In this document: in pieces, positions 6,177 to 61,209 of the stretch
How positions within the stretch are numbered: position 1 is the stretch's first letter
Layout of the letters: each line of letters starts with the position of its first letter
Origin: Minutocellus sp. GHC0000111
Lineage: Eukaryota
Assembly (NCBI GenBank): GCA_977018835.1
Contig: OZ361260.1
Span: 3,410,001 to 3,474,000, forward strand
Direction: 5' to 3'
DNA: 64,000 nt
Notes under the pieces: generated by a model
What the model was told of the DNA's origin: nothing
Database searches by the model: none
The model's input: only the letters and a program-made list of their open reading frames with translations
Position numbers and translations under genes: made by a program

Positions 6177-6791
6177 TTACTGGCCGGGAAGGTATCCGCC
6201 GGGAAGGATGCTGACGCCCATAACCTCATGGGTGACCAGACCCCAGATACCCATCATTGCGGCGCGTCCGTTGTTGAGCTCAATAGTGCGCTTCTTCAAT
6301 TTCTCCTCGTCGCTGAACTTGTCCCATCCAAAGTCAAGGGCGCCGCTTCTGTAATCACCGATGAACTCGGGGGTGACACCGGTGACCTCGCTGGCATCTC
6401 TGTTGCAGATCTCAGCCATAACAAAGAAGGCGGCCATCTGGTAGAGCACCATCATGCCATCGGAGGACTTGAGAAGGGCAGGGAAGGCGGCAAGGCCATC
6501 GGGGATGTCCTCGGCACCGGGGAAGCGAACACCGGCGGCGGTGGTCAGGTATCCGACGACGGCAAGCATGGAGACGCGGCCGTGCTTCAACTCACGCTCA
6601 CGGAGGGCATCGAACTTGGCCTGGGAACCGTCCTTGCAGAGCTGAAGGGGGTCAAAATAGCCCAAAGGCGTCATGGCGCCGAGCTCCTTGCTCAGGTCGG
6701 CACGGAGGGCAGTGGAGGCCTTGCCGGTCTGAGCGGGAGCAAAGGCAGCAGCGCCAGCGACGAGGGAGGCAATGATGGCAGACTTGAACAT
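6177..6791 (-). CDS. Fucoxanthin-chlorophyll a/c light-harvesting protein (LHC/FCP, Lhcf-like)
   Basis: Signal peptide plus AAAFAP plastid motif, then GYFDPL, ERELKHGRVSMLAVVG and IELNNGRAAMMG chlorophyll-binding helices. Confidence 0.97.
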   Translation of the reverse strand: MFKSAIIASLVAGAAAFAPAQTGKASTALRADLSKELGAMTPLGYFDPLQLCKDGSQAKFDALRERELKHGRVSMLAVVGYLTTAAGVRFPGAEDIPDGLAAFPALLKSSDGMMVLYQMAAFFVMAEICNRDASEVTGVTPEFIGDYRSGALDFGWDKFSDEEKLKKRTIELNNGRAAMMGIWGLVTHEVMGVSILPGGYLPGQ

Positions 6792-7120
6792 GATAGTGGT
6801 GGTGGTGGCTTATGTATTGGAGGCAGAAGAGGAGATACCGGGGAAAATGCCATGGTCCGCGCAGAACACGTTGCCCGAATCCAGCGCGAATCCAAGCCCT
6901 TCAAGCTACACGTACGAGCTCGTATCGTACGTGTCCTAAGCCTAGTCGAGTAAGTCATGTACCGGTTTCGACCAGGCTGACTCACTCGATTGATTCGATT
7001 GCTGCAAAAAATTTGGGTGCGCGGCCAGGGGCCAGGGGCTCTTGACGCGCGGCGCAAGAATGAGCGAGAGTTGGCGGCATTGCTCGCCTTCTCACTTATT
7101 TTCCCGATTTGGTTTCAACA

Positions 7121-18786: not shown

Positions 18787-20969
18787 CACAGCCCCATCTC
18801 GTCTTGTTTCGCCGGTCGGATGAAGCGTTTTTCGGCAGAAGACGAACACGTCACGAAGAAACCCACCAAAACCCAATCTCGTTCGTCACCCATTCTTTGA
18901 CCGTCCAACACCATGGTGGTCCGTCGGCGTTGCGCCGGCGCATAACTATATTTTCGTACCAAATACGCATTCATTATCATGTTTGGATATAGTTGAAGCT
19001 TATTGTATCCTCAGATTGGCCTCCGCTGCGTATCAACGCCACGAACCATCAGCCTACTTTTCCTCCATCTGTCGGCCGTTCGTTCGTTTTTTTCTCTGGG
19101 GTGGCACCATTGCTCCGTCTTTGTGCTCGTCGTGCTCCCGTTGTGATGCCCCAGACCCTCTGGTACTTTCCCACGTTGTTGTTGATGATAAACTGCCGGG
19201 ATTGCGCCGCACCCCCCGTATGACCGACTCTCGCTGATCCCGACCGATCGCATCCCCACTCGACCTCCCCCCCGGAATTCCGACAATGGTTTTGCGCCCG
19301 AGGAGAGACAGATAGCATTGGGATAAGTTTATGCAACAATCAACCCAACAAAGGGACTTTTTGGTCTGGGAGATAAATGGGTGAGTTAAGAAGGACGTGA
19401 TGTGTTTGTTTGGGTGCACTGTTTACTTTTTTGCTCAATCGCAACACTGTTTGTAAAGTTGGATTGTGCAATTCATTTGTCATTGTGTGTAGCAGCAGTG
19501 TAATTTCATTTTCTAATTTTGTGCATGCCCTGCTCCCATCTCTACATCCTCATCTCCATCGGTGGCCATCATGATCATTTGTTGGCGCTTGTCATCAGTT
19601 TCTGCTTTAACAGCTTCGGTCCTTGTCCTTTTCCTTGTTCTTGCCACCCGAGAGTTTCGCTCCCGCCTCTCCTCGACCTTTGGATTGGATGCCCTCTCCT
19701 CAGCCTTGAACCTGTTGTCCCCGGCAATTGGATCGTCATACTTCGTCTCTGAAACCAGCAGGAGAGTTCCTTTGGTGGAGGTGTTATGGTGGATGAACTC
19801 TGTTGTCCTTGGTTTCTTCTTGTTGTTGCCATCAGAAACATCAATGGATAAAGCTCTCCAGCATTCTGCCAGCACTGCCCTCATTTTACCTGAGTCGGCC
19901 GCCTCAATGCCGGCGTTTTTCAGGAAATGGAAGTGAGGGGCATCGTCATCCTCGGCATCATCGACAGCTCCCATCTCTGGCTCGCCATCACCGTGCTTCT
20001 GACGATTCTTCTCAAAGTGCTGCTGCATGCATGCATGCATGCGCCTCATGTGTAGCGTCCTCTCTTGCAATGTCAGCTTCGTCCTCACAACAGGGCACAC
20101 AGTCCTCGTCTTCGTCGTCATCGTCCTCACTGATCTCGCCGGCCTCCGTCGTGGTCAGGGTGCCCACCGTCCCAACATCGTCGTCATTGTTGTCCCACCC
20201 ATCGTCCTGGCCATTGCACCCACCAGGGAACTTCTGGGCCTCGAGCAACATCTGCCTGTTGATTTCGTAGTCCATCGCCGCATGTCCCACCGACACATGT
20301 GGTGCGACCGACTTGAGGAATGCATTGCATGTTTTCGTCAAATTGAGCCTCGGCGGCGGCATTTCGAGGCGAAATTGTTGTTGCTCGACCGTGACCACAT
20401 GTCGAAAGCCATCCATCCATCATCATCATGGAGAGAGCGTCGGCTGCACGAGGATTGATTGAACCGAGGCGAACAAACATGCTCTTTTTGTGTGGGGTTC
20501 GCTGAACGTCGTCGGCAAGGCAGTGTCTTGATGCCATTTCATCCCATCCATTCTGGTTGTCTGTCCTCACAAAAAAACACATCGCAGTCTTCTTCGTGTT
20601 TCTTCTTCTTCAAACCCAAGATGCCCGCAGTGTGTGCATGACGGCGCCGCACATGATGGGACTGCATCCCAACACATTCATCAAGGAGTCGTTGTTGTTG
20701 CCGATGAAATTGTAGCAATGAAGTTCCTTTCTGCGAAGACGGACGAGCAGTTCAGCCAGGGCGTCCTGCACCGCAACTCTGTGTCTGCGGGGTGTTGACC
20801 GCGGGATTGCGGCCGTTGTTTTTTTTTGCTCATGGAGAGTTGTGGATCGAGACCAACGGGAACATCACCAGGATGTCGCGGGAGCACCTGGTTGGTCTCG
20901 TGCCGCAACTCTCCCACACCAGCGCGAGACATCGCCTTCGTTCTGCACGTAGCGGCGGCAATTTGAATT
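18787..20969 (-). mobile_element. Chapaev/CMC-like DNA transposon copy A (left TIR present, right end truncated, internal deletion)
   Basis: Begins with the same CACAGCCCCATCT terminus as the 58261-60902 copy and is colinear with it up to ...ATTTGAATT (20969 = 60787). Confidence 0.85.
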
Positions 20970-22331
20970 CACACACATCGGTGGGATGTGCGGCGATGGA
21001 CTACGAAATCAACAGGCAGATGTTGCTCGAGGCCCAGAAGTTCCCTGGTGGGTGTAATGGCCAGGACGATGGGTGGGACAATGACGACGATGTTGGGACG
21101 GTGGGCACCCTGACCACGACGGAGGCCGGCGAGATCAGTGAGGACGATGACGACGAAGACGAGGACTGTGTGCCCTGTTGTGAGGACGAAGCTGACATTG
21201 CAAGAGAGGACGCTACACATGAGGCACACATGCAGCAGTGCTTTGAGAAGAATCGTCAGAGAAGCACGGTGATGGCGAGCCAGAGATGGGAGCTGTCGAT
21301 GATGCCGAGGATGACGATGCCCCTCACTTCCATTTCCTGAAAAACGCCGGCATTGAGGCGGCCGACTCAGGTAAAACAAGGGCAGTGCTGGCAGAATGCT
21401 GGAGAGCTTTATCCATTGATGTTTCTGATGGCAACAACAAGAAGAAACCAAGGACAACAGAGTTCATCCACCATAACACCTCCACCAAAGGAACTCTCCT
21501 AGAGCACAATCGCGAGGAAGATGGCATGACGGATGACGACATCAAAGAGCTCTGCAAAGCTTGCTCTAATTTGCTCCACACTCTTGACGCAACATGTTCC
21601 AGGTTTCTGAAATGGTGCATGAAATGGGATGATGAGGCAAAGAAGGCTGTGAGAGAGCTTGAAGCATTGATTGCAAGTGCCCTCAAGCAAGCACGGGCAA
21701 TCGGTGTTAGCATAACGCCCAAGTGGCACTTACTCGAAGATCACATCTTGGACCAACACATTTGGCTAGTAGTGAAGAATGGATGGGGCGGCATCTATTG
21801 GCTCGACGAATCGTTTGTAGAGCGAGCCCACCAAGAGGGCGTTAAGTAAGGAAGATCGTCGGACTCAGGGCGTCAAGGGATATGAGGCCCAACAGACGGC
21901 GCAGTTCAAGGCTGAGGAGAGGGCATCCAATCCAAAGGTCGAGGAGAGGCGGGAGCGAAACTCTCGGGTGGCAAGAACAAGGAAAAGGACAAGGACCGAA
22001 GCTGTTAAAGCAGAAACTGATGACAAGCGCCAACAAATGATCATGATGGCCACCGATGGAGATGAGGATGTAGAGATGGGAGCAGGGCATGTATAAAATT
22101 AGAAAATGAAATTACACTACTACTACACAATAACAAATGAATTGCATAATCCAACTTTTACAAACAGTATCGCGATTGAGCAAAAAAGTAAATAGTACAC
22201 CCAAACAAACACATCACGTCCTTCTTAACTCACCCATTTATCTCCCAGACCAAAAGTCCCTTTGTCGGGTTGATTGTTGCATAAACTTATCCCAATGCTA
22301 TCTGTCTCTCCTCGGGCGCAAAATTATTGTC
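20970..22331 (+). mobile_element. Inverted internal fragment (copy A') of the same transposon, with transposase C-terminus
   Basis: Reverse complement of ~58748-60123. Encodes VSITPKWHLLEDHI...GGIYWLDESFVERAHQ, the H-x4-H plus catalytic-E region of CMC/Transib-type DDE transposases. A 4-bp TAAG duplication at ~21843-21850 creates a stop. Confidence 0.85.
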
Positions 22332-22746: not shown

Positions 22747-24089
22747 CTAATTATCCATGGTTGGATCAGCAGGAGGAGGAGCGATAATTTTCCCATCTAT
22801 CCGAACCATGCCATTTTCAGTCGGCCTGAAATCCTTTCGCACCCCAACATGCATGCCTTCACCGTTTCCAAGAAAATCATTGTTGCCTTTTGCAACGATT
22901 ACCTTCTTTGCAATTCTATGAGCCTGTATGTATGCCGATGCGATCTTCCAGTTTTCCAGCCCCATCCAAACTTCCTCCGCTGCATCCCAAGTCTGATCCT
23001 CTGTCAAAACCTTCAGCCCCTCCCGATCGCGGCACAACATTGTATGCTGCTTTGACATGCAAGGGAAAACAGACAGATCAAGAACATTCATATGGGGCAT
23101 TGCGGGGCCTGAGGTTCCCAACGCCATCCCTTGTCCCGACAGTATCCTTCCACATATTCCACAAATTCAGTCTCGGCATGGGGCCCAGCATTGTCGCCCT
23201 GGAAAATAGGGACATAGCCTTCAAACTTTCCGCCAGGTCCGACCAAAGCCTCAACATCCGGAAATATCTTGTTCTCAAACAAAGCTTTCAGTGGGAACTT
23301 GGGATTATCAAGGGTGCCATGGCTGCATCCAGTCACCGCGCAATCCACAAGGTATAGATCGTCTTTCTTCCGAACCACCGGGCCGCAATATTTGATTCTA
23401 CCATCTGCCTGCCGCACCGCCTCCCTTACCATCTGCCTCGCAATTTTATGCGCCTGAGCCCGAAAAAGTCCAAGCTTGAACGCAATGCCGCCATTCTCAA
23501 TGCTGTCAATAAAAGCCAAGGCAGTGACAGCCACCACCATGCACTTGTTGATGTGATTTCGGTGATATGCCGAGAAGGACCGAGGATCAACACCCAATTC
23601 TGCAACTTGCTTGGCATGCGATCGAAGAACCAAGCCCCAAAACCACTTCTCATCGAACATAACAAGGAGAAACTTGCCACCGCCGAGCCCCCAATTGTTT
23701 CGGAATTTCCGCGCAAATGCCAAATGTTTCTCCATCTGATGTGTAGTAAGGAGAGGGATGATCCTTTCGGCATAGTACCGGAACCCTTCCCGCGACATTA
23801 TCCACCGCCGTATTGCCGAGTAGGAACACCAAAAGTTGACATCCACCTCCAGCTCCCGCCAAGATTCCCGAGGATTTCGTATCAGAGCATCAACAATAAC
23901 ATCTCGAATGTATGGCTGCATAGCCAGATGAGATCTCCTCTTCATCTCCCACATCGCCTTCTCAGATGCAGGTAGAGCACCATACGCCTTCATCCATCCC
24001 GAAAATCGTGCACCATGCTCTGCGCTGGACAGCACCGAATAGTCCACCTTTGCCTGCTCTCCCTGCACTTGGCAATTGCAAAGAGACAT
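22747..24089 (-). mobile_element. IS630-Tc1-mariner transposase related to the plant-mariner (DD39D) group, here DD38D; 1-nt frameshift at ~23100
   Basis: IIPLLT..QMEKHLAFA, VMFDEKWFW, HINKCMVVAV, IFQGDNAGPH and QAPQ(M)PHMNVLDLSVFP. After restoring the frame there are 38 residues between the second and third D. Confidence 0.85.
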
Positions 24090-24128
24090 GGTGCAGTATG
24101 CCGCCGGGTCGCCGTTGCAAGATCGTCG

Positions 24129-24670
24129 ATGACAGAACGGAAGGCGGCCGAATCAGATGAATCATCGGCACTCGTTGGGAAGCAGTATACCGGTCCAAGT
24201 ATGCCGATCGCGTCATCGAAATGCTCAGCTTCGACTTCCGCCCGAGACACAAATGGATTGAACACATACTCACCGCTGTCTTGGCCATCATCATTGACCA
24301 GGAGAAAACTCTCAAGATTGACGGGCCCGAGGATTTTGAGAAGCACATGCTCCTCAATGTCGTCAGTCGACTCGTCTGCCGGGCGATAAGGGCCGAGAAC
24401 ATGCCCCTCGACATGGATGATGTCGTGGCAATAACTGAATCGGTGTACGACAAGGCCGCGGAGATGTTCCACTCCTCAGTTACCTTCATCTACAAGTTAA
24501 ACGGCGTGAAGCGGGAGCTAAAGAAGCTCAAGCTCATCCCGGATTGGCTGTGGTGCGAGATCCGGGACGAATGCATCGTACTGCCGATCCGAGGCGAGTA
24601 TCATGCCATCGTTCAAGATGAAGACGAGATGGAGGCCGAACCGTCGCGTCGCACGAACGCGTCCATTTGA
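24129..24670 (+). CDS. Orphan ORF (~180 aa) divergent from the mariner transposase; probable frameshift at ~24160
   Basis: Protein-like sequence with strong GC3 bias (IIGTRWEAVYRSKYADRVIEMLSFDFRPRHKWIEHIL...WLWCEIRDECIVLP). No family recognised. Confidence 0.4.
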
Positions 24671-25503: not shown

Positions 25504-27063
25504 TCAATGCACACAGGTGCTCACTTCGGGCACGCTCGTCATTGTAGCAGCAGCATTGCGATCAAGGCACTGCTTCACTTCCTCTAGCATATTTCCATCT
25601 AGAGAGAGAATGTACTTCAGATAATAAACTACAATCATGTCGAGTTGGCTGCCGGGTCCGTTGACAAAAGTGACGAATTCGTTGTCATCGACAAATTGCA
25701 AATCGATGTTGCCGTTGCTGTCCGTGGGGACAATGTTCCCATCCCCATTGCCACTTCTCTTGAAGTTGGCTTGAAGCTGCACATGTAATTGGAATGGAGT
25801 AGTTGCACACTTATGGGTTAGAACATAACATGGCCAGAACAATTGAAATGATGCGCATTAAACAATACTGACTTACCGTAGTGACATTGGAACGGACTTT
25901 TGTGAGGGTATCTTTCATGTCCTTCTCTGTTGCTGGTCTGTTGGAAGATGGCGGTGGCAGATCATTCGCTTTGTTGAAGGGTTCGGGTAAATCAGGCATC
26001 TCAATCGACTGAATTGACACATCACTGTTGCACATTTGAGCGGCCTTCTCGTAGAAATTGAGAGGGCGGTTGGGGGAGTTACGATCGTCAAGCTCCCTGG
26101 CAGTTGCGGAGTTGTTTCGGTTCACAAGATCATCACGGAGAGAGGGGTGAAGCATCACATGGAAGCGTCGGAGTACAGCAAATGTGCTGGCATGGGCGAC
26201 TTGGCTGGCATCTTCCTCAAGCTTTGAGCAGAGATTTGTGAGCAGGGCGTTGACAACGGGACGCTCATTGGGAACAATGATCTCGCTAAGATATTTTTCC
26301 AGCTCCGATTTGGTCCAATTGGTACACTTCGGCATCTGCCTTGGCTCGTCGGAAGCATCATTAAGGAGGACGACGCGGCGCAATACCTCGCGTTTCATCA
26401 CGATCGGATTCGACTACGGAACTCCTTTCTTCATTCCATACTTTTTGCCCTTCTTTCCGACAAAGTTCTGGAGGGTTTCGTGTTCAAGAGGATCGACAGC
26501 ATATTCGGTACCGACAGTCATGGCAATAAGAACAGCTGGTTCGTCCAAGGCCTTATCATACCATTTCTGGGGCCGAAGTTTGTCAGCATCAATACTGAAG
26601 ATAGTATACAAATCATTGGCCAACGTTTGTGATGGGCGAGCGGGGGAAGACTGGGCTGGCCTGGAACGTGATGAACCACTCAAGCTGTTGTTGCTGGAAC
26701 TACTGTTGGAAAGGGAACTGGGAAGATGGTTGCGGCATCGAGTTCGGTTACTGTCGGGGTTGATGTCCGACCATCCATTCATACACTCGACGCAAAAGGC
26801 GATGCCGCAGATGCGGTCGAGGTGATGGGGCCGGGGCGGTAAGCAACAGTACTTTGTGGCACGATGAAGCGGCAGATGTTCTCAGTGAGGGTAGAAGTAG
26901 AGCACATGCTACATCGGACAGGTTCAAACTTGTTGACTGAATAGTTGAATGAAAGGATGGTCAAACCATCCTCGTCGGCATCGGATGCGGCGGTAGCACC
27001 GCCCGCTGCTGCGGAAGCGGAAGCGGCGGAAACCTCTGACGCCTCTGTCCGCGTGTTTGCCAT
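25504..27063 (-). pseudogene. Harbinger-associated second ORF (N-terminal Cys/His zinc finger; Myb/SANT-like accessory), disrupted
   Basis: Convergent with the transposase. CSMC..C...RICGIAFCVEC...RCRNH after a 1-nt frameshift at ~26820, an in-frame TAG at 26414-26416, then LNFYEKAAQMCN...NFKRSGNGDG and a probable intron near 25790-25877. Confidence 0.55.
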
Positions 27064-29159: not shown

Positions 29160-29833
29160 CAGACGTACTCTTCTATTGTGTTCTCGTTCGTTTCAGTGCT
29201 TAACATGCACGCCCGTATACGTACGTATAAACAGCCTGAGCACACGCGTTCAATGCGTGTTTAGTGCTGATGCGATGATGTTCTAGTGGCTAACGCAAGC
29301 TCAGGGAGGGGGCACCCATCCGCGCACATAGAGACAGTTTGCTATGATTTCCTTTGTTCCGGCAAGTAGTCAGATTCGTGTGGATAGTTGCGCTACAGCA
29401 GATGGCCCGGGTGCCCCGATGAGTTGAATGCGTGCAGAGAGAAGCAAGCATGTTGTTGTGTTGCAATCCACAAACAACGGGTGTGTGCAACACATGTGGA
29501 GAGGAGCAGCTGCCAAAACAAGGCGGTGCACTTTATGAGCAAGGCGGAGCTACTTGTCATCCGCCAACCCTGACTGCAGCCACTAGGTAATTACTAGTAG
29601 AAGCTAGCGCTACTAGTAGGTAACAACCACTGCCAAAACGCTCATCATCTGCCCCCATTCGAGGGAGGCGGGACCAACATGTTTTTTGACAGGACCAAGC
29701 CCATTTGCTAGCAGTTTGTTAGCCGCCTTGTTTCGTCACTCGGTCAGAGCTCGAGGCGGAGCCTCGAAATTTCTTTTCCCTCTGCTTGGCACCTTCTCGT
29801 CAAAATGAGCGAGCGACATGATGTTTCTAGAGT

Positions 29834-30202
29834 GCAGCTAGCTAGCCCGTCTTTCTTTTCTTGGCTCTCTTGGCTTCTTGTCGTCGTCGTCGCTCTCTGC
29901 TTCGTAGTCGGACGCGTCAGCAGCTGCGGCCGCCACGGCAGCAGCTACGGCCACGGCAGCGACTTCATCGGCATCGTCCTCGTCGTCGGACGGGCTGAAA
30001 GTGGTCGTCGAGCCAAGAGCAGCTAGCTAGCCCGTCTTTCTTTTCTTGGCTCTCTTGGCTTCTTGTCGTCGTCGTCGCTCTCTGCTTCGCAGTCGGACGC
30101 GTCAGCAGCTGCGGCCGCCACGGCAGCAGCTACGGCCACGGCAGCGACTTCATCGGCAGCATCGTCCTCGTCGTCGGACGGGCTGAAAGTGGTCGTCGAG
30201 CC
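29834..30202. repeat. Tandem duplication, period 185 bp, of the 3' end of a degenerate minus-strand ORF
   Basis: Units 29834-30014 and 30019-30202 are identical except for a 3-bp indel and one TA/CA substitution (29905 vs 30090). Confidence 0.9.
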
Positions 30203-30830: not shown

Positions 30831-31750
30831 TGATGCATCTTTTCCACCCGTGCTCGCCCCATTTCGGCTGGTTCGCACCTCACCGGTCGGTTTGTCTTGC
30901 TTGGTTGGGTTCTCACTCGTCACGCAAGAAAAACCGACACATTTTCAATCGGCCAAAACGACCGTTTCTTTCGACAACATTGGAACGACGATCCAATCCC
31001 TTCCCCGAAAGTCCTGACCAGATCGACCCATCCAATCGATCACACTTCTCTCTGGATCGAACCTTCTCTGTCGATCACACGTCTCGCAGCAGCAACACCG
31101 CCGTGCTGCCTGCCTGTCTTTGTCGCTGACTGAAACACCAGCATGAATCCCGACGCAGTTTTTGGCCAACCTCTCGGCGCAGCGCCGATTCTCCCCACCA
31201 AGTTAATCACACGCATGAATGACCCAGGACAACCTCCCAACGCGAGCGTGTTGCCAAAGCGCTCAAGGAACTTCAACAAGCGGCGGCCACCAGCGTTCCA
31301 GCAGCAGGGTGCAATGTGACCATGACCTCGGCCATTTGGGCCTCGTCGTCAGCGATGCCGAATACACAACCGAAAGTAACGGCCGACCACATGTGCCTCC
31401 GGCAAATGCTGGCCCCAGCCCCACCATTCCCGCCGTGGCCAATCTAGACCAACGCGATCGTGCAATCCGGGGACATTGCATCGAAAAGGGCCACTGCAAC
31501 TTGTGCGAGCAAGTCAACACGGCGCTCAAGAATCTCCTCCTCGACTCGACCGACGCCGTCTACATCAATCATCTCGAAGATGACATGCTCGGTTTCCAGC
31601 CAGTCACCATCCGCCAAATCATCGACAGCATCACCGATCGCCACTTGAAATTCAAAACGAGAGAGACTCAGAAGGAGGAATTAGAGAAGCAGCTCGAGAA
31701 GCAGTGCGACGGGGGACCCATCGACACCCACATCGCCATGTTTAACTCGG
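30831..31750 (+). mobile_element. Truncated Ty1/Copia (CoDi-like) LTR retrotransposon relic: candidate 5' LTR 30831-30979, candidate PBS at 30981, gag N-terminus from 31143
   Basis: TG...CAACA followed by T-TGG. The frameshifted peptide ...KELQQAA.SVP...GHLGLVVSDAEY...P.VPP...VNTALKNLLLDSTDAVYINHLEDDMLGFQPVTIRQIIDSITDRH matches the diatom Copia gag pattern as I recall it (GHLGLV..AEY; ALK..L..A.D..Y...L.D..LGF..VT). Confidence 0.7.
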
Positions 31751-32600
31751 CCTTTGGGCACGTTGGAGGGATGAGTGTTTCAACAGTTCGAGCCCGGCAC
31801 AGCAGCCCATCCAACATCAACTCCCCTGCGCTCTCCGGACGGTCTTGCCTTTTCCTTCCGAAGGCAAACAACACCAACGGCCTGTTCACGACGACTCAGG
31901 CGACGTGACGGAGCAACCAGGGAAGGAAGGACCACCAGGAGCATGGCCTCGATCGATCGGCTTGTCGATGAGGCGAGATTTGGCAGCAGGCCACCACATG
32001 TTGGTGACCAGCACAGCAGGGCCGTCATGATGGAAGAGGTGGACGGCCGCGTTGATGTGAACGACCATCCACAGCGCTGCAGCGAAGACGGCATCACTGT
32101 CAGCCCCCCTGCACCCAAAAAAGCGATTGGAACTCGGAGGCATGCGTCGCGGACAGATCGTGGACCGACCACCAGACTGTCCGGCACACTCCTCCTCGCC
32201 AGAGGTTGGCTGGCTTGAGAGCATGGCCCGACAGCAAACACCATGAGACGGCAGACTCATCTTGGCGTGCTACTAGTAGCAGCATGTAGCATGTGACGGG
32301 TGCGTTTTTCAGCATGGCTGGCGCCTCGAAAATTTCAGCAGAAGCGCGCGAAAAATTCGGAAACAACCATTCGGCAGAAAAAAGGTGAAGCGGGGCCAAA
32401 ACAATTAGCAAAAGACGATGAGGAAACACTATGTAGGCTCTGTGAATTTGCCGCGGAAGATGCGATTATTTGCATTGTTAATATTTTTTATCTTCGGGGG
32501 TGTTTTCGGGTTGTGCCCCGCTTCGATCATTGATTTTTCTCCGTTCATGAAGATTGTTATAACCCGGGAACTTCACCCCATTTCTCCATGTTACCGTTGT

Positions 32601-36482: not shown

Positions 36483-37003
36483 CTTCGACAATTACTTGAA
36501 TTGTAGCCGCGCAGAATTGTAGAAAGAAAAAGTGGGAAAACTTGCGTGCAATCAAACGAGTGATTTTGCCAAATGTTGTGCTCGGCTTGTTCTATCTTCA
36601 CAAATTTCTACTCATTCGTTGCAATCGAGTGTGCTGAGCTCCTCAACATCTCCTCATTCTTCTTCATTGCAGTCGATGAGTACCACTCCTGCCACTTGCG
36701 CTCAACGGACGGCCAGTATCAACCAACAACCAACAACTCCGAGGGTGGGACATGAGTCGAGTGAGTCCATCGAAAAGGAGGCACTCTAGCTACGTGCTAG
36801 TGCCTAGGTAGCTAGCCTCTGCGCCAGCTGCTGCGTGAATTTTTATCCGGTCTGCCTTCTCTACGTAGCCAGACTAGATCTGTTAATTGCGGTGATTTGA
36901 ACAAACAAGATGTGTTGCAAAGCAAACTGTGTATTATAATCATGTATAGGCGTGTGTGTATTTGAGGCACAAGCCACATTCACATGGCGTCAAATTTCTT
37001 TTG

Positions 37004-38434
37004 TTAAAAGCAAAGAGGCTCATCACCGTCGTCATCGTCCTCGCCAAGCACAAAGCTCTCATCATTGGCATGGTTGCCGGTGCCCTCGGCCTTGGATTTG
37101 CCCGCAGATGCAGTGATCTGCCCTGAGCTGTCGACACGAGAGTTGGCCAGCCCCTCCTCGCTCCGGGCGCAGAGCCGGAGGAGATTCCGACGAGTCACCA
37201 GGACGTCCTCGTGGTCCTCCTCGAGATGGTGCTCTCGGATCCACAGAGCCTCCTTGAGGGCTACCATGGCGGCATACGAGTCGTCGACGTGCGTCAGTGC
37301 GCAGCCGATGTAGTTGAGGGTTTCGGCCACGGCGAGGTGGTCGGTGCCCAGCTCCTCCCTCTGGAGGAGAAGGACCTCGTTGAAATGAACAATGGCCTCG
37401 GCGCATTGTTCGTTGTCGAGATGGTCGACGCCAGCTTGGAGGGGTTCGGCCCATCTAGCTTCGTGGTCTTCTTCTTCGCCATGGTCGTCGTCGCTGCCTT
37501 GCTCATCGTCTTCGGCGGTGGCAACGGTGGCAGTGGCATGGGAGCACTTCTTGACATTGTCGTTGTCTTCGTCGTCGTCGGTGTCCTCCTCTTCGTTGAT
37601 GATCTCATCCCACAAGACGTTGAGGAGCTTGCCTATGCTAGAGACTCGAGGTGGGGGCTTGGTGTTCGGTTCGAGAGGGTTGCCGTCATTGTCTTGGTTG
37701 TCGTTGTCTTCGTCATCACTATCAACGTCGAGGCTGGCCGTGCCAGACGAGCGTCTTCTTTGATCTGGCATCATGGACGATGGTGCGTCCTTGGGGCTGG
37801 TGCCGAGCATGTTCAGTGCCGCACTTGACAGCCGTTTGACGCCGGCACCAATGCCACCGCTGGCGTTCATGGAATTCGTCGACGAATCGAAGTTGGTGCG
37901 ACGATTGTTCCCGCCGACCGGAGCAGACGACAGGCTGCGATCGTCGGAGCTTTGCCTCCACGAGGCGAGGCTGGATCGACGATTCGCCGAGGAGTCATTT
38001 TTGGTAGCAGCGGGCGCAGCTTCTGCGGTGGCCGCGGCGGTGGTTTCGTCCTGGAAGGTCTTCATCATGCGAGCCAATCCGCTGGGTCCCTTGAGATCCT
38101 CCTCGTCCTGCCTGGCCTTGGCCGTGGCCTTGACCATCTCGTCGAGTGCGACCGGACATCGAAGATTCATCGTCGCCGACGGATCAGGTCTAGCCATGTT
38201 GTTTTTGTTGGCGGCACCTTTGGGCTCGTCGTGGACGCTGCCGCTTCTCCCCCGCCGACGGCCGGCGGCTTGTGCTGGGGAGGAGTACGAATGGGGATCG
38301 TCTCCGTCGTCGTCTTGCTCTTGAACTCCCTTTTGGATCAAGTCCATTCCTCGTCGAATCCAGTTGCCGCCACCCTCGGCATCGCCGTCGGCATCTCGGC
38401 CCAGCACCTCGCAGCACGCTCCGTGGTTGACCAT
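37004..38434 (-). CDS. TPR protein (kinesin-light-chain-type repeats) with acidic disordered N-terminus
   Basis: AIVHFNEVLLLQREELGTDHLAVAETLNYIG...ALKEALWIREHHLEEDHEDV. Confidence 0.8.
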   Translation of the reverse strand: MVNHGACCEVLGRDADGDAEGGGNWIRRGMDLIQKGVQEQDDDGDDPHSYSSPAQAAGRRRGRSGSVHDEPKGAANKNNMARPDPSATMNLRCPVALDEMVKATAKARQDEEDLKGPSGLARMMKTFQDETTAAATAEAAPAATKNDSSANRRSSLASWRQSSDDRSLSSAPVGGNNRRTNFDSSTNSMNASGGIGAGVKRLSSAALNMLGTSPKDAPSSMMPDQRRRSSGTASLDVDSDDEDNDNQDNDGNPLEPNTKPPPRVSSIGKLLNVLWDEIINEEEDTDDDEDNDNVKKCSHATATVATAEDDEQGSDDDHGEEEDHEARWAEPLQAGVDHLDNEQCAEAIVHFNEVLLLQREELGTDHLAVAETLNYIGCALTHVDDSYAAMVALKEALWIREHHLEEDHEDVLVTRRNLLRLCARSEEGLANSRVDSSGQITASAGKSKAEGTGNHANDESFVLGEDDDDGDEPLCF

Positions 38435-49400: not shown

Positions 49401-51758
49401 CAGAAGAAGCGTCGAGAGCTAGTTCGTGAGAACAAGAAAACGTCGCGATTCACCAATGACTTCCTCGAGGCTTTGACAGATCAAGAGATCACTGAATTTG
49501 ACGACGATACCAAGGCCGAGTTTGAAGCACTTCCCGGCCCATCGTGCTTTAGCCGAAGCAACGTAAATGCCATGGTTTCCAAGATCCACGAGGAAGATGC
49601 CTTCGAAACCGAGACACTCGTCGTTCTCACCTTGGAGGAAATCGAGGCTAGGGAGGACGAGATGCTTGCTGAGATGAACAAGGAGCTTGCCCAATACGGT
49701 GACGTTGAAGCAGTCTACGAACGTTCTGATCGAGAGACGACGGCTAAGATTGACAAGTTGAAAAGGGAGATCAACGACTTCAAGGAATCTTTACTCACGC
49801 TCCCCCAAGTCCGGGCTTCTGCTATGGACGGACTTCGAGATGCCATTGAAGATGGAACTATCAAGGCGCTCAAAACGGCCATCAGGGCTGCTGAGAATGC
49901 ATGGCTTACTAGTGATGACGATGAAACAGGCGGTGTCTGGGCGCTGGATTTGCTCCGTGATGCCAACCTTGAGCTCTCCTCGGCTGAGAAGCGTAAGAGA
50001 GTCACCCAGGCTCAGCGAGATCTCATTGCCAAGCGCAACAAATGCTTCGTTCGTACCGAGCCCATCGGCCAGGATAAGTATCGTAATAGCTTCTGGAACT
50101 TGGACAACGACGATGAAGGCCGTGTTTGGGTCGAGGCTGAGTACGCTCTCAAGGCAAACGACTCCGTGCCAGACGACGAAAACGATGACAACCTGGTGGA
50201 ATCAACCGAGGGCGTCAAGATCGGCGTCGACGATGAAGAAAAGGATATGTTGAGCGATGAACTCTACTTCGTCGATGGTGCTCGGGATAAATTTGTGCAC
50301 TTCTCCAGACAGGAGTATCATTCTTCTGGTTTGGTGGCCTCCCTCGCGAAGCGTCACTGGGGCTGTGAAGCAACTGACAAATCGTTGCGCATGCTTATGA
50401 AGAACCTCGACGGGAGAGGTCTTCGCGAATCGGCTCTCAAGAGCAGTCTGAAGGAGATTGTCGAAGCAATCGCTGTGGTTTCGGCTGACGGAGGTGCCGA
50501 CGATGACGCCGCCAAAGTTAAAGATGAAAATGCGAAAGCGGCATCTCAAGCAGATGCAAAAGGCAAGGACGCCAAGGCCAAGTATCAGACGACCGGCGAC
50601 GACGAAGAATTCACCAAGGCGGTATCTGCGGGCGCTGGCTCAGCTTGTCGCATAGCGTTTGACCTTATTGAGGATGTGTCTTCGGCTATCAGCCAGCGCG
50701 TGAGGCTTCGCAAGGTCGAAGATCCGGTCGATGCCCCTGAAGAAGCCGAGTATGTGATGGGCACCGTTACTGGCTGGAAGATGACCGAAATTGTTTCAGA
50801 TGTTGGACAAGAAAATACCGAACCGAGCGAAGAGAATGCCAATGGTGAAACTTCGACTAAAACAGCCCCTGTCTGGGTCGTCGATATTGATAATGGTGGT
50901 GAGGAGGAGCTATCGGCCGTCCAAATTGTCGAGGGCGTATCTCGATATTTGATGTGGCGAACACAATATGATGGCTACTCGGAAGAAAATTTCAACCTTC
51001 GGGAATACAGAAATGGTTTGGGGCGCTACTGTGGTAGGGCTGCCGATGCGCCGTATGCTTCTACACCCGCTTTCTTGGCATGGCTCATGATCAAAAAGGA
51101 GCAAGATTTGTATCCTCCCCTCAAAAATCGCGTCTATGAGAATGAGTGGGGTGGTAAGAGTGGGGCTCGAAATGCTTGGGTTGCATCAATCAAGGAGTAT
51201 GGCCATGATCTTGCCACCCTCCGAAATGGTCTGCTGACGCTTGAAGAAACTTTCTTCAATTTCTGTGGTCGATTTGATGCTCATGCCGGCGTTCCAGAAC
51301 TGGAAGCGGCCCTAAAAGACCAACGCACTGGCAAAGAGATTTTGGAAGATGACAAGCTGGTCTTCGAGATCGAGCTAGAGACTTTTGGCCAGGCCGCAAA
51401 GATGGGATTGTGGAATTCTCCCATCTCAAGAAAGGTCTTTCAGCAAATTGTTTTGGGAAAGTGGCAGTGTGTGCTGAGCGAATGTGCTGCATAGCTCTTT
51501 GCTTATTGAACTATTGTGAATATCATCTCACCTATCTTTATCATTTCGTTTCTCGTTACAGACTGTAAGAATGTTGGCACTCTGGCTCTTTGCCTGGATT
51601 TATTATGTCGCAATGCCAAGGGTTTCCTCGATGCAAATCAAGTCAAGACTACGACAAGAAACCAAGCTGTGGCATCATTCGAACAGCCTGAGTTGGTTTG
51701 GGGAACAAGCCGCCGATCTGCCGCGAGGCAGACTTCGTATTCTCAGTTTTTCGATTGA
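46490..51758 (+). CDS. BAZ2/TIP5-like ISWI accessory chromatin protein: degenerate bromo-like + MBD + DDT + WHIM1 + WSD; introns 46768-46897, 47227-47342, 47886-47988, ~51457-51561
   Basis: MBD: GKYDTVFYSQAGKRLRSMIAVAKFL. DDT: DLLMCWDFLCTFSRPLSLEPISLDDFAAAL. WHIM1: GYTDLSPIQKLSIMRVLVE. WSD: RTEPIGQDKYRNSFW and LMKNLDGRGLRESALKSSL. Exon phases are consistent. Confidence 0.85.
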
Positions 51759-51875
51759 TTTAAAATAAATTAGATGCGCACAATCGGAAAGTAGATCTAA
51801 CTATATTCTATGCTTGATTGCAAAGACTTGTATTCTACCTAGAAATCTAAATTAGATCAGAAGCTTTTCCTCTTC

Positions 51876-52372
51876 TACCTTCTTGCTCTATTACGCATGA
51901 CCTGCATCGCAAGCATTGCAGTGAGCGCATCAGAGACTCCTTCGTCGGCATTGGCGCTATGATGGTGGATAACTTTCCGCCCGCCGCGCACAATGACATC
52001 ATCAGGACTCTTCAAGCCAGGAATAGCCTCCGCGTCGCCAACCCAGTACAAGATATGTCAGTCGGCGTGTCCCTATGCTTGCAGATGAACTGTTCCGTTT
52101 TCTCCTCCGCTGAGACACATGCCGAGGGGCTGGCGAAAGTCGACGTCAAGGCTACTGTTGCCTTGCTCATGAATGTGATTTATGCCGCAATGAGCAATGC
52201 ACACCCATTTTCTATCGACGCCTACAAACAGCTGAAAGTCGCCAGAATCGCTGTTGTCACATTCGATGTAGCAGCCTCGAATGTCGTCCTTCTTTTGATT
52301 CTTGCCTTTGGTGTAACGCATGACTTCCAGCCCGCCAGCGTCGACGACGATGCGGCTCGTATTGGCTGCCAT
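51876..52372 (-). pseudogene. Small orphan ORF interrupted by two in-frame stops
   Basis: MAANTSRIVVDAGG...HLQA*GHAD*HILYWVGDAEAIPGLKSPDDVIVRGG... The frame stays protein-like past both stops. Confidence 0.4.
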
Positions 52373-52583
52373 GGTTCGTCGTCACAATCGTGGAAAATGA
52401 AAAAAAAATGAGCCATTGGCCATTTTGGAACCCGGAAGGGCTTTCCAGTACCGTACCGCGGCATGGGCGCATGCATGGCGAGATGAAGTCAAGTCGAAAG
52501 TCGAGAGAACCATCACATGACTGAAGGCAAGCAAAGCAAAGAGAGCAACGAAACCAACATAAATTCTGAGTAGCAAACACATC

Positions 52584-54314
52584 ATGAAGACGAAAGCATC
52601 TCCGCTGGTATCGCCATGCCTGGAGTCCACGCGGTGCTATCTGACTTGCGCCTCTCGCGACGTCCTTCTTTCTTGCAACTCCAGCGCAAAAGTAGGCACC
52701 AAGATGAATCTAGCTGACTCGTGCAGCGTCAATGAAGAATGGTCCATTATCCCTATGGAGGATGGTCGCGTGGCCTTGTATTCACTCAAGACCAAACGAT
52801 ATCTTTCAGCCGGAGCGGGCGGTGCGCATGGCAGCAGAGATGGAAAGTGCCAAATCGCCGCAGTAGAGGGCTGTGACTCGGATCAGCAGCGATGGAAAGT
52901 CGAACCATCGTCGGCTGAGAAGGGTGGCATCCATCTCCTCTCGGCGGCAAGGAAGCAGTCCAAGCTGGCGTGCAATGAAGATGGCGAGCTGTATTTATCC
53001 GAAAATATTTACGAAGGTCTGGGAGAGACGTGGCATATTGAATTCCTGAGTGGCGAGCTGTGCTACATATCTTCCCAGAATTCTCACCACGACGTCCGTG
53101 TTCGATGCGATCCCACTGGAATTCTCGACGTTTCTGAGAACTGGAAGGGCTGGGAGGTTTTCCGTTTCATTGAAGCTGGAGATGGCAGAGTTTACATTTC
53201 GTCGTGGACGCACTCGAAATATTTCCTAAGTTCGAATTCTGATGGGAGAGTCGCCGCTAGAAAGAAGCGGACAGCAGATGAGAAGTGGTTGGTCAAGAAG
53301 AGCAAGGATCAGCCGGGGGTTCTTATCATCTCCCAGCAACACGGCAAGGCCTTGGCCACCAATGGCAGACGCTTGATCACAATGGATCCATTTGATATTC
53401 TTGCGTCAGGCGATGGCGGCGACGTAGACGATGGTGACTCAAAGAAATGCTTTAGCGGGCTCTGGGATCTCGTGGCTGGGAATAAAAACACTTTCTTCGT
53501 TGCGTCCAATTCGAGCGGCCAGTGCATCGGGTCCAGTCCCTGCAAGAAGGCTGGTCCATCTGATGCCATTATGACCAATAAACGCAAGGCTTGGCAGCAG
53601 TGGACTTTATCTGAAACGGACGATGGTTCAATAACCTTGAAGAGCAGCGCTCACAACCTCTACATTGGAGTTGACAAGAGTAACAAGGTCACGCTGAACC
53701 AAAATGCTGGTCCCAACGAGATGTGGTCGCTTGAGGAGTCGCCACACGGTGGTATCTATCTAATTTCCGACGAGCATCGTGTCTGTCTGAGCTGCAATGA
53801 GTCTGGCGTCCTCGGGGCGGTATCGGGAAAGGATGGTGCAGAAGAGACTTGGACGTTAGTGCGCTCGATGTCATCTAGTCTCAGTGGGCCTGTAATTGGA
53901 ACCATGGTGGGACTTGGGCTTGCTACCGCTGCTTTTGCATGTGCCGCTCCATTCATGGTAACTGGTGCAGTAGCAGCTCTGGGATTTGGAGAGGCTGGCA
54001 TTGTTGGTGGATCAACAGCTGCAGCGATGATGAGCGCTGAAGCGATGGCTGCCAGCACAGGTGGAGTAGCGGCGGGAGGACTAGTCGCAACATGTCAGTC
54101 GATAAGAGCTGCAGGTTTGGGATTTGTCGGTACATCGACCGCTATCGCTGGTTTTGCTCTAGTTGGTGGAACTTTGTCTGCGGCTACGGTTGCTGGGGTC
54201 AGTAATGCGAGCAAGAAGAAGTCTGACCAAACAGCCGATGAAAATAGTAAAGAAGGAGTGGATTGCCTTGCACCCACAACCAACCGACCCTTTTGTGCTT
54301 GGCGCACATGGTAG
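52584..54314 (+). CDS. Fascin-like/beta-trefoil repeat protein with C-terminal IFI27/ISG12 (Ifi-6-16) domain
   Basis: Repeated E.W.I....DG.V.L.S....YLS units. C-terminus APFMVTGAVAALGFGEAGIVGGSTAAAMMSAEAMA..GGVAAGGLVATCQSI.AAG is the ISG12 motif. Confidence 0.8.
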   Translation: MKTKASPLVSPCLESTRCYLTCASRDVLLSCNSSAKVGTKMNLADSCSVNEEWSIIPMEDGRVALYSLKTKRYLSAGAGGAHGSRDGKCQIAAVEGCDSDQQRWKVEPSSAEKGGIHLLSAARKQSKLACNEDGELYLSENIYEGLGETWHIEFLSGELCYISSQNSHHDVRVRCDPTGILDVSENWKGWEVFRFIEAGDGRVYISSWTHSKYFLSSNSDGRVAARKKRTADEKWLVKKSKDQPGVLIISQQHGKALATNGRRLITMDPFDILASGDGGDVDDGDSKKCFSGLWDLVAGNKNTFFVASNSSGQCIGSSPCKKAGPSDAIMTNKRKAWQQWTLSETDDGSITLKSSAHNLYIGVDKSNKVTLNQNAGPNEMWSLEESPHGGIYLISDEHRVCLSCNESGVLGAVSGKDGAEETWTLVRSMSSSLSGPVIGTMVGLGLATAAFACAAPFMVTGAVAALGFGEAGIVGGSTAAAMMSAEAMAASTGGVAAGGLVATCQSIRAAGLGFVGTSTAIAGFALVGGTLSAATVAGVSNASKKKSDQTADENSKEGVDCLAPTTNRPFCAWRTW

Positions 54315-58143: not shown

Positions 58144-58260
58144 GGTTGAACGATAAGCTTTATGTGGTGGAAAACAAACACAATCCTCGTCAATACCAAT
58201 GAAATGCCCAACCAAGAGCCACACGAGTTGTGTGCGTTGGATGGAGCGAGAGCGGCGGGG

Positions 58261-60902
58261 CACAGCCCCATCTCGTCTTGTTTCGCCGGTCGGATGAAGC
58301 GTTTTTCGGCAGAAGACGAACACGTCACGAAGAAACCCACCAAAACCCAATCTCGTTCGTCACCCATTCTTTGACCGTCCAACACCATGGTGGTCCGTCG
58401 GCGTTGCGCCGGCGTGTAACTATATTTTCGTACCAAACACGCATTCATTATCATGTTTGGATATAGTTGAAGCTTACTGTATCCTCAGATTGGCCTCCGC
58501 TGCGTATCAACGCCACGAACCATCGGCCTGCTTTTCCTCCATCTGTCGGCCGTTCGTTTCTCTGGGGTGGCACCATTGCTCCGTCTTTGTGCTCGTCGTG
58601 CTCCCGTTGTGATGCCCCAGACCCTCTGGTACTTTCCCACGTTGTTGTTGATGATAAACTGCCGGGATTGCGCCGCACCCCCCGTATGACCGACTCTCGC
58701 TGATCCCGACCGATCGCATCCCCACTCGACCTCTCCCGGAATTCCGAGACAATAATTTTGCGCCCGAGGAGAGACAGATAGTATTGGGATAAGTTTATGC
58801 AACAATCAACCCGACAAAGGGACTTTTTGGTCTGGGAGATAAATGGGTGAGTTAAGAAGGACGTGATGTGTTTGTTTGGGTGTACTATTTACTTTTTTGC
58901 TCAATCGCGATACTGTTTGTAAAAGTTGGACTATGCAATTCATTTGTTGTTGTGTAGCAGTGGTGTAATTTCATTTTCTAATTTTACACATGCCCTGCTC
59001 CCATCTCTACATCCTCATCTCCATCGGTGGCCATCATGATCATTTGTTGGCGCTTGTCATCAGTTTCTGCTTTAACAGCTTCGGTCCTTGTCCTTTTCCT
59101 TGTTCTTGCCACACCCGAGAGTTTCGCTCCCGCCTCTCCTCGACCTTTGGATTGGATGCCCTCTCCTCAGCCTTGAACTGCGCCGTCTGTTGGGCCTCAC
59201 ATCCCTTGACGCCCTGAGTCCGACGATCTTCCTTAACGCCCTCTTGGTGGGCTCGCTCTACAAACGATTCGTCGAGCCAACAGATGCCGCCCCATCCATT
59301 CTTCACTGCTAGCCAAATGTGTTGGTCCAAGATGTGATCTTCGAGTAAGTGCCACTTGGGCGTTGTGCTAATGCCGATTGCCCGTGCTTGCTTGAGGGCA
59401 CTTGCAATCAATGCTTCAAGCTCTCTCACAGCCTTCTTTGCCTCATCATCCCATTTCATGTGCCATTTCAGAAAAACCTGGAAGAATGTGTTGCGTCAAG
59501 AGTGTGGAGCAAATTAGAGCAAGCTTTGCAGAGCTCTTTGATGTCGTCATCCGTCATGCCATCTTCCTCGCGATTGTGCTCTAGGAGAGTTCCTTTGGTG
59601 GAGGTGTTGTGGTGGATGAACTCTGTTGTCCTTGGTTTCTTCTTGTTGTTGTTGCCATCAGAAACATTAATAGACAAAGCTCTCCAGCATTCTGCCAGCA
59701 CTGCCCTTATTTTACCTGAGTCGGCCGCCTCAATGCCGGCCTTTTTCAGGAAATGGAAGTGAGGGGCATCGTCATCCTCGGCATCATCGACAGCTCCCAT
59801 CTCTGGCTCGCCATCACCGTGCTTCTGACGATTCTTCTCAAAGTGCTGCTGCATGTGTGTGCGCTTCATGTGCAGCGTCCTCTCTTGCAATGTCAGCTTC
59901 GTCCTCACAACAGGGCACATAGTCCTCGTCTTCGTCGTCATCGTCCTCACTGATCTCGCCGGCCTCCGTCGTGGTCAGGGTGCCCACCGTCCCAACATCG
60001 TCGTCATTGTCCCACCCATCGTCCTGGCCATTGTCACACACCCACCAGGGAACTTCTGGGCCTCGAGCAACATCTGCCTGTTGATTTCGTAGTCCATCGC
60101 CGCACATCCCACCGATGTGTGTGGTGCGACCGACTTGAGGAATGCATTACATGCCGTCATCAAATTGAGCCGCGGCGGCGGCGTTTCGAGGCGAAATTGT
60201 TGCTCTCGACCGTGACCATGTCGAAAGCCATCCATCCATCATCATGGAGAGCGTCGGCTGCACGAGGATTGATAGAACCGAGGCGAACAAATATGCTCTT
60301 TTTGTATGGGGTTCGCTGAACGTCGTCGGCAAGGCAGTGTCTTGATACCATTTCATCCCATCCATTCTGGTTGTCTGTCCTCACAAAAAACACATCGCAG
60401 TCTTCGTGTGTTTCTTCTTCTTCAAACCCAAGATGCCCGCAGTGCACATGACGGCGCCGTACATGATGGGACTGCATCCCAACACATTCATCAAGGAGTC
60501 GTTGTTGTTGCCGATGAAATTGTAGCAATGAAGTTCCTTTCTGCGAAGACGGACGAGCAGTTCAGCCAGGGCGTCCTCCTGCACCGACGGACCGCAACAA
60601 CTTCTGTCTGCGGTGTTGACCGCGGGATTGCGGCCGTTGTTTTTTTTGCTCATGGAGAATTGTGGATCGAGACCAACGGGAATATCACCAGGATGTCGGG
60701 AGTACCTGGTTGGTCTCGTGCCGTAATTCTCCCGCACCAGCGCGAGATATCGCCTTCGTTCTGCACGTAGCGGCGGCAATTTGAATTTTTGCCGCCATGG
60801 TGGCTCGCGTTGGGCGCGCCGGTCGGTTGCTTCGCGCGCCGGCCGGCCACCGAAAGTGCGACCAAAAGTATGCGAGTCATCCGGCTGGCAGATGGTGCTG
60901 TG
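58261..60902 (-). mobile_element. Chapaev/CMC-like non-autonomous DNA transposon copy B (2642 bp) with both TIRs and 4-bp GGGG TSD; degenerate transposase ~60798-58984
   Basis: Left end CACAGCCCCATCT, right end reverse-complement CACAGCACCATCT (1 mismatch), flanked by GGGG on both sides. Encodes the TPKWHLLEDH...DESFVERAHQ motif. Confidence 0.85.
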
Positions 60903-61209
60903 GGGGGGCCGCCGCGCGGGGGTCGGCGGGTGCATGTGCCACGTGGCATATCATGTACCATGGTAATGATGATGTAATCGAAATCTCCACTCGCTACGTA
61001 CGTACGGCTGACGATGATCACGACATCGCCGTTTACCTAGTAGCTAGCTAGGTACGTTTTCATCATCCATTTCTCTCTTCTCCGAAGAAGGAACTCAGTT
61101 CATGCTGATCTTATCCATCGTCAAAAGGTCTCTCGTTGTTCGCCGATCTCCGCCCAAACGCCTAATAAGGGCCCTTAGCTGCGCTGTGCAAAGCAACAGT
61201 CCTTGAAGC

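Follow-up and report, generated by a model that had tools for sequence, protein, structure and literature searches.

A-to-G hypermutation at TpA sites in a DNA transposon of the diatom Minutocellus

The element and its three copies

The DNA analysed here, called the window throughout, is a stretch of 64,000 nucleotides from Minutocellus sp. GHC0000111 (contig OZ361260.1, positions 3,410,001 to 3,474,000 of the forward strand). It contains three copies of one DNA transposon that differ from each other chiefly at TpA dinucleotides, in a manner that points to conversion of A to G on either strand. An initial reading of the letters alone (the sequence-only reading) placed the copies as follows, and these limits hold on realignment.

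18787-20969, minus strand: copy A, a RAG1/Transib-fold DNA transposon with an internal deletion and a right truncation; the transposase is on the minus strand
20970-22331, plus strand: copy A', partial, inverted, directly adjoining A
58261-60902, minus strand: copy B, a deletion derivative keeping both termini, CACAG...CTGTG

Pairwise identity of the three copies is 93-96%. A and A' together form a head-to-head inverted repeat with arms at 19760-20293 and 20978-21500. In the arm part A and A' share states against B, and in the 3' block A' is closer to B, which suggests a mosaic history or gene conversion.

Public sequencing runs carry a relative of the window DNA that is a few percent divergent in unique DNA. 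The comparison with these runs was made without reads of the window's own strain, and summed contig depths were taken as an indication of presence only, not of copy number or allele frequency. The insertion site of B is empty in runs X1, X2 and X4, where the sequence is joined across 58250-60911, and the flanks of B are G-rich and compatible with a target-site duplication of 4 or 5 base pairs (bp). The target-site duplication of Transib is 5 bp. One contig of X1 links the right end of the element at 60902 to its left end at 58260 with three letters between them, as expected of a tandem copy or of a circle produced by excision.

Full-length relatives of the transposase, of about 1090 residues, exist. 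Sequence searches of Pfam and the PDB gave no class for the transposase, and only fold comparison did so. The predicted structure of one full-length relative (mean predicted local distance difference test score, pLDDT, of 74) matches RAG1 (E = 6e-11), BbRAGL and HzTransib, with an identity of about 10%. The element thus shares CAC termini and a predicted RAG1-core fold with the RAG1/Transib-type transposons, but is only about 10% identical to them and lacks a Pfam hit. By its termini, its empty site and its fold the substrate is a DNA transposon, of which the window copies are deletion derivatives.

The substitution spectrum

We counted all aligned positions of A, A' and B away from gaps, of which 69 columns are variable. 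In 36 of them one copy has TA, and 15 hold CA versus TG only; six are CG-type, eight other transitions and four transversions, of which one touches a TA. Changes among TA, TG and CA make up 51 of the 69. The sequence-only reading had held that the copies differ mostly at TpA, from hand counts of 10/13 (A versus A') and 5/6 (B versus A') in a block of about 250 bp; a recount gave the same figures. The further details that it had reported, a TAA stop read as CAA in copy A and Tyr/Cys/His variants of the transposase, are likewise present in the sequence.

TA sites are variable in 34 of 69 cases, compared with 9/152 CG sites (Fisher p = 4e-13). TA-class changes represent 20% of the opportunities for transition, but 36 of the 50 transitions observed (p = 4e-15). 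There is no strand bias, with 28 TG against 33 CA (p = 0.6), and both strands are changed within single copies. The few AA-to-AG changes that had been noticed number about six; AA is changed in ~6/306 cases compared with 52/152 for TA, some 17-fold less. Change of CA to CG is rare, with one clear case at 60734.

The same sites vary in the public runs. Among X1 contigs covering 58860-59480, 17 places vary at 8% or more: 16 TA sites, one AA and no CG. None of the 25 CG in this segment varies at that level. Many of the same variants are found in the Illumina run X6, so the check in Illumina reads that had been proposed is answered by reads from relatives of the window's strain. Since the variants recur in public runs they are not a read artefact, and for 58860-59480 that explanation is rejected. 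An origin in sequencing or assembly, to which the use of relatives' reads might lend some room, deserves negligible weight given this recurrence and the normal spectrum in the unique flanks of the element.

The direction of change

Four tests bear on the ancestral state. First, the relative present in run X16 has TA as its majority state at all 12 of the TA positions variable in X1 (a minor X16 contig carrying unrelated differences was left out). Second, the outgroup transposases P0010 and P0011 (75-77% identity) carry Tyr and Ile at the positions that in the family are Tyr/Cys/His and Ile/Thr/Met; site 1000 is uninformative on direction because the outgroups have Ile there. Third, at 17 Tyr-class sites in the transposase family, to which 44 of 45 proteins contributed, we find Tyr 136 times, Cys 130, His 115, Ser 2 and Arg 0 (Cys or His in 245/383), counted across related copies, while in the same set Arg CGN codons are changed in 4/341. 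Fourth, the sites with CA versus TG only have R..Y flanks (R, purine; Y, pyrimidine) in 8/8 cases, compared with 32/178 CG sites.

All four agree in indicating that the ancestral state is TA, the state that the sequence-only reading had taken as ancestral, and the change is A-to-G on both strands. Many copies and an unedited relative alike point away from an ancestor with CG, CA or TG. The X16 relative has TA at every hot site in 58860-59480, together with other substitutions of its own, and the process seems to be weak or off for this transposon family in the X16 lineage.

The reverse polarity, in which CpG decay or CA-to-TA change of the fungal type acted on CG, CA or TG ancestors, could draw on the 15 CA-versus-TG columns and the six CG-type columns. 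It is hardly credible in the face of the X16 states, the absence of Arg among 383 Tyr-class observations, the stability of CG and the RTAY-type flanks of all the CA/TG-only sites. CpG decay is ruled out as the main cause (9/152 CG sites variable, 4/341 Arg CGN codons, 0/25 CG in X1). Fungal repeat-induced point mutation (RIP), a C-to-T change that creates TpA, is ruled out as the main cause by its opposite polarity.

At least one copy is changed at 41 of the 76 ancestral TA sites. The load is highest in A (29/62), followed by B (21/76), and lowest in A' (11/48). Across 19800-20969 within copy A the rho value of TA is 0.10. At the element's left end, which lies downstream of the transposase gene (58261-58750; 18787-19280), most TA is kept, with 3/16 sites changed, and RTAY sites are among those kept.

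The sequence context of the edit

On the strand taken to be edited, TAY is changed in 47/96 cases and TAR in 5/56 (p = 2e-7). When the sites with CA and TG only are omitted the figures are 31/80 and 5/56 (p = 7e-5). No effect of the 5' flank was found in the copies (p = 0.73). The protein set agrees. His replaces Tyr through an edit on the other strand, and it is found in 92/206 cases where a purine precedes and in 14/147 where a pyrimidine does (site-level p = 0.003). Exceptions to the TAY preference occur at residues 222, 973 and 1000. From these comparisons the edit is A-to-G on either strand, with a preference for 5'-TAY-3' and a near-obligatory 5' T.

Unique DNA and host genes

Single-nucleotide polymorphisms (SNPs) in unique DNA between the window and the related runs are TA-class in 5 and transversions in 15 of the 38 listed, with 528 further ones beyond these. 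In three host genes, none of 213 comparisons shows Tyr changed to Cys or His, and the TA class accounts for 18 of 131 distinct variants. There is thus no TA-class excess in this DNA, and the concentration in transposons that had been proposed is seen in the contrast between 0/213 host Tyr changes and 245/383 in the transposase family.

Two further host features of the window are the following.

6177-6809: a chlorophyll a/b-binding protein gene, whose product has a diatom-type targeting motif
52563-54314, plus strand: a host open reading frame (ORF) encoding a fusion of beta-trefoil lectin/fascin repeats with an Ifi-6-16 domain

Within 51565-52477, stretches of 104-427 bases are missing at three joints found in X1, X2 and X4, while another contig, of lower depth, is an exact match to this segment; this is possibly another insertion polymorphism.

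Other targets in the window

The following features show the signature to different degrees.

22747-24152, minus strand: the transposase gene of a Tc1-like family that is young and high in copy number, only lightly changed
25811-26782, minus strand: a split ORF of a four-member cluster, class not established, lacking a Pfam hit, with 5/10 variants TA-class
29831-30202, no strand: a tandem duplication of about 186 bp, in which one of two substitutions is TA/CA
31100-32250, plus strand: a decayed element with a gag-like ORF, strongly depleted of TA, its decay judged by composition only
37001-38434, minus strand: a host TPR-domain gene with the same signature, Tyr-to-Cys changes and low TA

The Tc1-like family is about 99% identical, in clusters of 146, 54 and 46 members. 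In its main ORF 12/28 distinct amino acid variants are TA-class (p = 0.001 versus host genes), and Tyr is changed to Cys or His in only 7/136 cases. Its C-terminal ORF (1-2/21 variants) and the ORF at 24221-24670 (3/25) show no TA-class excess; with both Tc1 ORFs pooled, 13/49 variants are TA-class compared with 18/131 in the host genes, which is marginal (p = 0.05). One transposase of the window has named relatives in Cylindrotheca closterium and Fragilaria crotonensis; together with the chlorophyll a/b-binding protein and its targeting motif, these indicate diatom DNA. The window as a whole is eukaryotic and dense in genes. The ORF at 25811-26782 is probably transposon-borne. That at 31100-32250, which we take to be gag-like, is also without a Pfam hit and absent from the protein collection, and the 1151 bp of this element contain seven TA (rho 0.14), four of them in the spared YTAR context. 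Between 22400 and 27000 the mobile-element ORFs, Tc1-like and unclassified, have a gene-like TA content beside the TA-poor A and A', and depletion is therefore spread unevenly. Two scans of metagenome contigs were negative, one giving 325 pattern matches, none of them a relative, and the other no match at all.

In the TPR gene three of six Tyr positions read Cys; relatives of 42-83% identity retain Tyr there. Its TA rho of 0.19 is the lowest among 16 host ORFs, and its flanks keep TA. Copies on two other contigs have Tyr at two of these positions and independent Tyr-to-His changes elsewhere, and one of them is split. These two contigs look homologous, because the neighbouring genes are also present. 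A further protein from the window's own contig, P0167, is one residue different from that of the window TPR gene, and this contig may therefore hold a second copy.

Comparison with known systems

The sequence-only reading knew of no description of such a mechanism, and this does not stand. In the text available to us, Mettrop et al. (bioRxiv 10.64898/2026.01.13.699255) describe A-to-G hypermutation confined to TpA in Bigelowiella natans, arising de novo at about 1000-fold above background and active in only some lines. Its targets are an insertion of giant-virus DNA, present in single copy, and a virophage region, transposon domains are enriched among TpA-poor coding sequences, and an ADAT2-like deaminase, the same kind of enzyme as we consider below, is proposed. 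Both processes convert TpA to TpG or CpA on both strands from ancestral TA. In B. natans the changes are limited to foreign-type DNA; here the host controls are spared (5/38 listed SNPs; 0/213 Tyr), but one host TPR gene carries the signature. They differ in that B. natans is a rhizarian in which mutation of single-copy viral DNA was measured de novo, while here the evidence is comparative and concerns multicopy DNA transposons and a host gene in a diatom. The main text of the preprint, so far as available, mentions neither diatoms nor a preference for a trinucleotide or flanking base; the motif here is TAY with minor hits at AAT. We conclude that the feature is genuine and that it resembles the B. 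natans process in the way it works, the likeness being one of signature.

The likeness to RIP of ascomycetes lies in closely spaced transitions, specific to a dinucleotide and present on both strands, by which transposon ORFs are ruined. RIP is a homology-dependent change of C to T, mostly at CpA, that makes TA (as set out in the available parts of PMC2621366 and PMC3318451), whereas the diatom process destroys TA and raises GC. It is not RIP.

Literature searches, with most subscription papers outside reach, found no report of the signature in diatoms, and neither did the accessible text of a 2025 diatom transposon preprint. What is new here is the occurrence in diatoms, the half-edited multicopy DNA transposons, a relative without edits by which the direction is fixed, the motif TAY and the host-gene casualty.

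A candidate adenine deaminase

As the candidate agent we lean towards a TadA/ADAT2-like enzyme of the host that deaminates adenine in DNA, making A-to-G changes at TAY and likely steered to silenced or foreign loci, with a chromatin mark, small RNA or homology as possible guides. Such an enzyme would convert A to hypoxanthine, to be copied as G, and would act on chromosomal DNA rather than on an RNA intermediate. That the change is made on DNA is inferred from a substrate that has no RNA intermediate and from edits on both strands within single copies; the same two observations argue against RNA editing of the ADAR type fixed by reverse transcription. Once a single edit has left TG/CA in place of TA, neither strand offers a target any longer; CG would therefore not build up, and the load would rise with the time that a copy has spent silenced. 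Copies are hit independently, one by one, with loss of Tyr, Ile and stop codons. The transposase ORFs P0180 and P0183 are near full length (about 1090 residues) and open despite many Tyr-to-Cys/His changes, because TA-to-TG/CA change takes away stop codons instead of making them.

The proposed activity resembles that of the TadA-derived adenine base editors in its pure transitions, near-obligatory 5' T and 3' pyrimidine. According to the portions of these papers that we could consult, ABE7.10 favours YAY and disfavours AAA (PMC10188366), and ABE7.10 and ABE8e-YA make A-to-G changes in DNA with YAY preferred over YAR and AAA disfavoured (PMC10188366, PMC12528748).

Several observations weigh against this interpretation. 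No deaminase family match was found among the 30 window ORFs scanned. The TadA-derived editors, which are engineered and guided by Cas9, also accept CAY in the published descriptions available, yet here the 5' T is nearly obligatory and CA-to-CG change is rare. The target is not strictly TA, since five of the approximately six AA-to-AG changes are at AAT, and TAR sites are often changed in places (Ile973 to Met in 14/24; His at site 222 in 6/35). The unique-DNA control is itself small, its 38 listed SNPs coming from one gene and an inter-strain comparison. Finally, the counts from transposase family proteins are not of independent events, because the copies are related and probably come for the most part from the assembly to which the window belongs.

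Alternative explanations

A different view of the targeting, compatible with a deaminase, is a true reverse of RIP in which duplication of sequence itself triggers the edits. Every hit transposon family checked is multicopy, and P0167 makes a second TPR copy on the same contig possible. In a full-length copy the ends common to the abundant deletion derivatives are changed at 9/17 sites and the low-copy interior at 4/17, a difference that is not significant (p = 0.16) and comes from hand-counted sites. But A', which lies in an inverted pair, is the least-hit copy, the Tc1-like family with its clusters of 146, 54 and 46 has Tyr changes in only 7/136 cases, and the B. natans target is described as single-copy in the text available (bioRxiv 10.64898/2026.01.13.699255). 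We regard this trigger as doubtful. The term repeat-targeted used in the sequence-only reading stands insofar as the changes are concentrated in mobile DNA, while a duplication trigger is doubtful: with A' least mutated, a family of more than 100 copies lightly hit and a host TPR gene affected, repetition alone does not predict the load. Age and silencing are likelier determinants.

Alternatively, TpA in silenced DNA might carry a symmetric covalent mark, such as a methyl-adenine or a modified thymine, that decays or mispairs to change A:T to G:C, as 5-methylcytosine (5mC) does at CpG. This would account for a self-complementary dinucleotide target, for changes on both strands and for restriction to silenced-type loci, and a sequence-specific transferase could yield the TAY preference. 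We know of no TpA mark of such a kind, and eukaryotic N6-methyladenine is located at ApT in active genes. Passive decay also fits poorly with a rate that is switched on or off 1000-fold between B. natans lines in the available account (bioRxiv 10.64898/2026.01.13.699255), and we think such a mark unlikely.

We think it quite unlikely that a polymerase eta-like enzyme, filling repair patches with errors where transposon chromatin is methylated, produces the A-to-G changes at WA (W, A or T). Such synthesis shares with the present process the changes at A following T or A that mark the polymerase eta (non-canonical AID) signature; the approximately six AA-to-AG changes are consistent with it, and the 5mC reported on diatom transposons (PMC9998398, accessible part) could start the repair. 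Polymerase eta changes A to C or G at both AA and TA, with many transversions (PMC4686820, in the part available), whereas here the changes are nearly pure transitions with a strong TA bias, AA lies about 17-fold below TA, one of the four transversions is at a TA, and CG decay is rare. Both this polymerase and a TadA/ADAT-like deaminase had been named as candidates from the letters alone. The deaminase provides the better fit, given the TAY preference, the 17-fold lower rate at AA and the near absence of transversions.

Implications

Taking the deaminase interpretation further, we tentatively suggest that diatoms may own a natural adenine base editor. This would be a nuclear enzyme of the TadA/ADAT type, guided to silenced loci, that converts TAY to TGY in chromosomal DNA, retiring transposon families copy by copy and able to ruin silenced host genes as well. 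Together with B. natans it might then represent an A-to-G genome defence across the SAR (stramenopiles, alveolates and Rhizaria) supergroup.

Known mutagenic defences, RIP and APOBEC, turn C into T, and the A-to-G counterpart on chromosomal DNA has so far been one preprint that lacks an enzyme. A polarisable, half-edited family together with an unedited relative gives a direction, a strand symmetry and a TAY motif, all of which a candidate enzyme would have to reproduce, and diatoms include CRISPR-tractable models. The process would distort the dating of transposons, the building of consensus sequences and the Tyr/Cys/His content of diatom gene predictions, and it might supply a natural DNA adenine deaminase.

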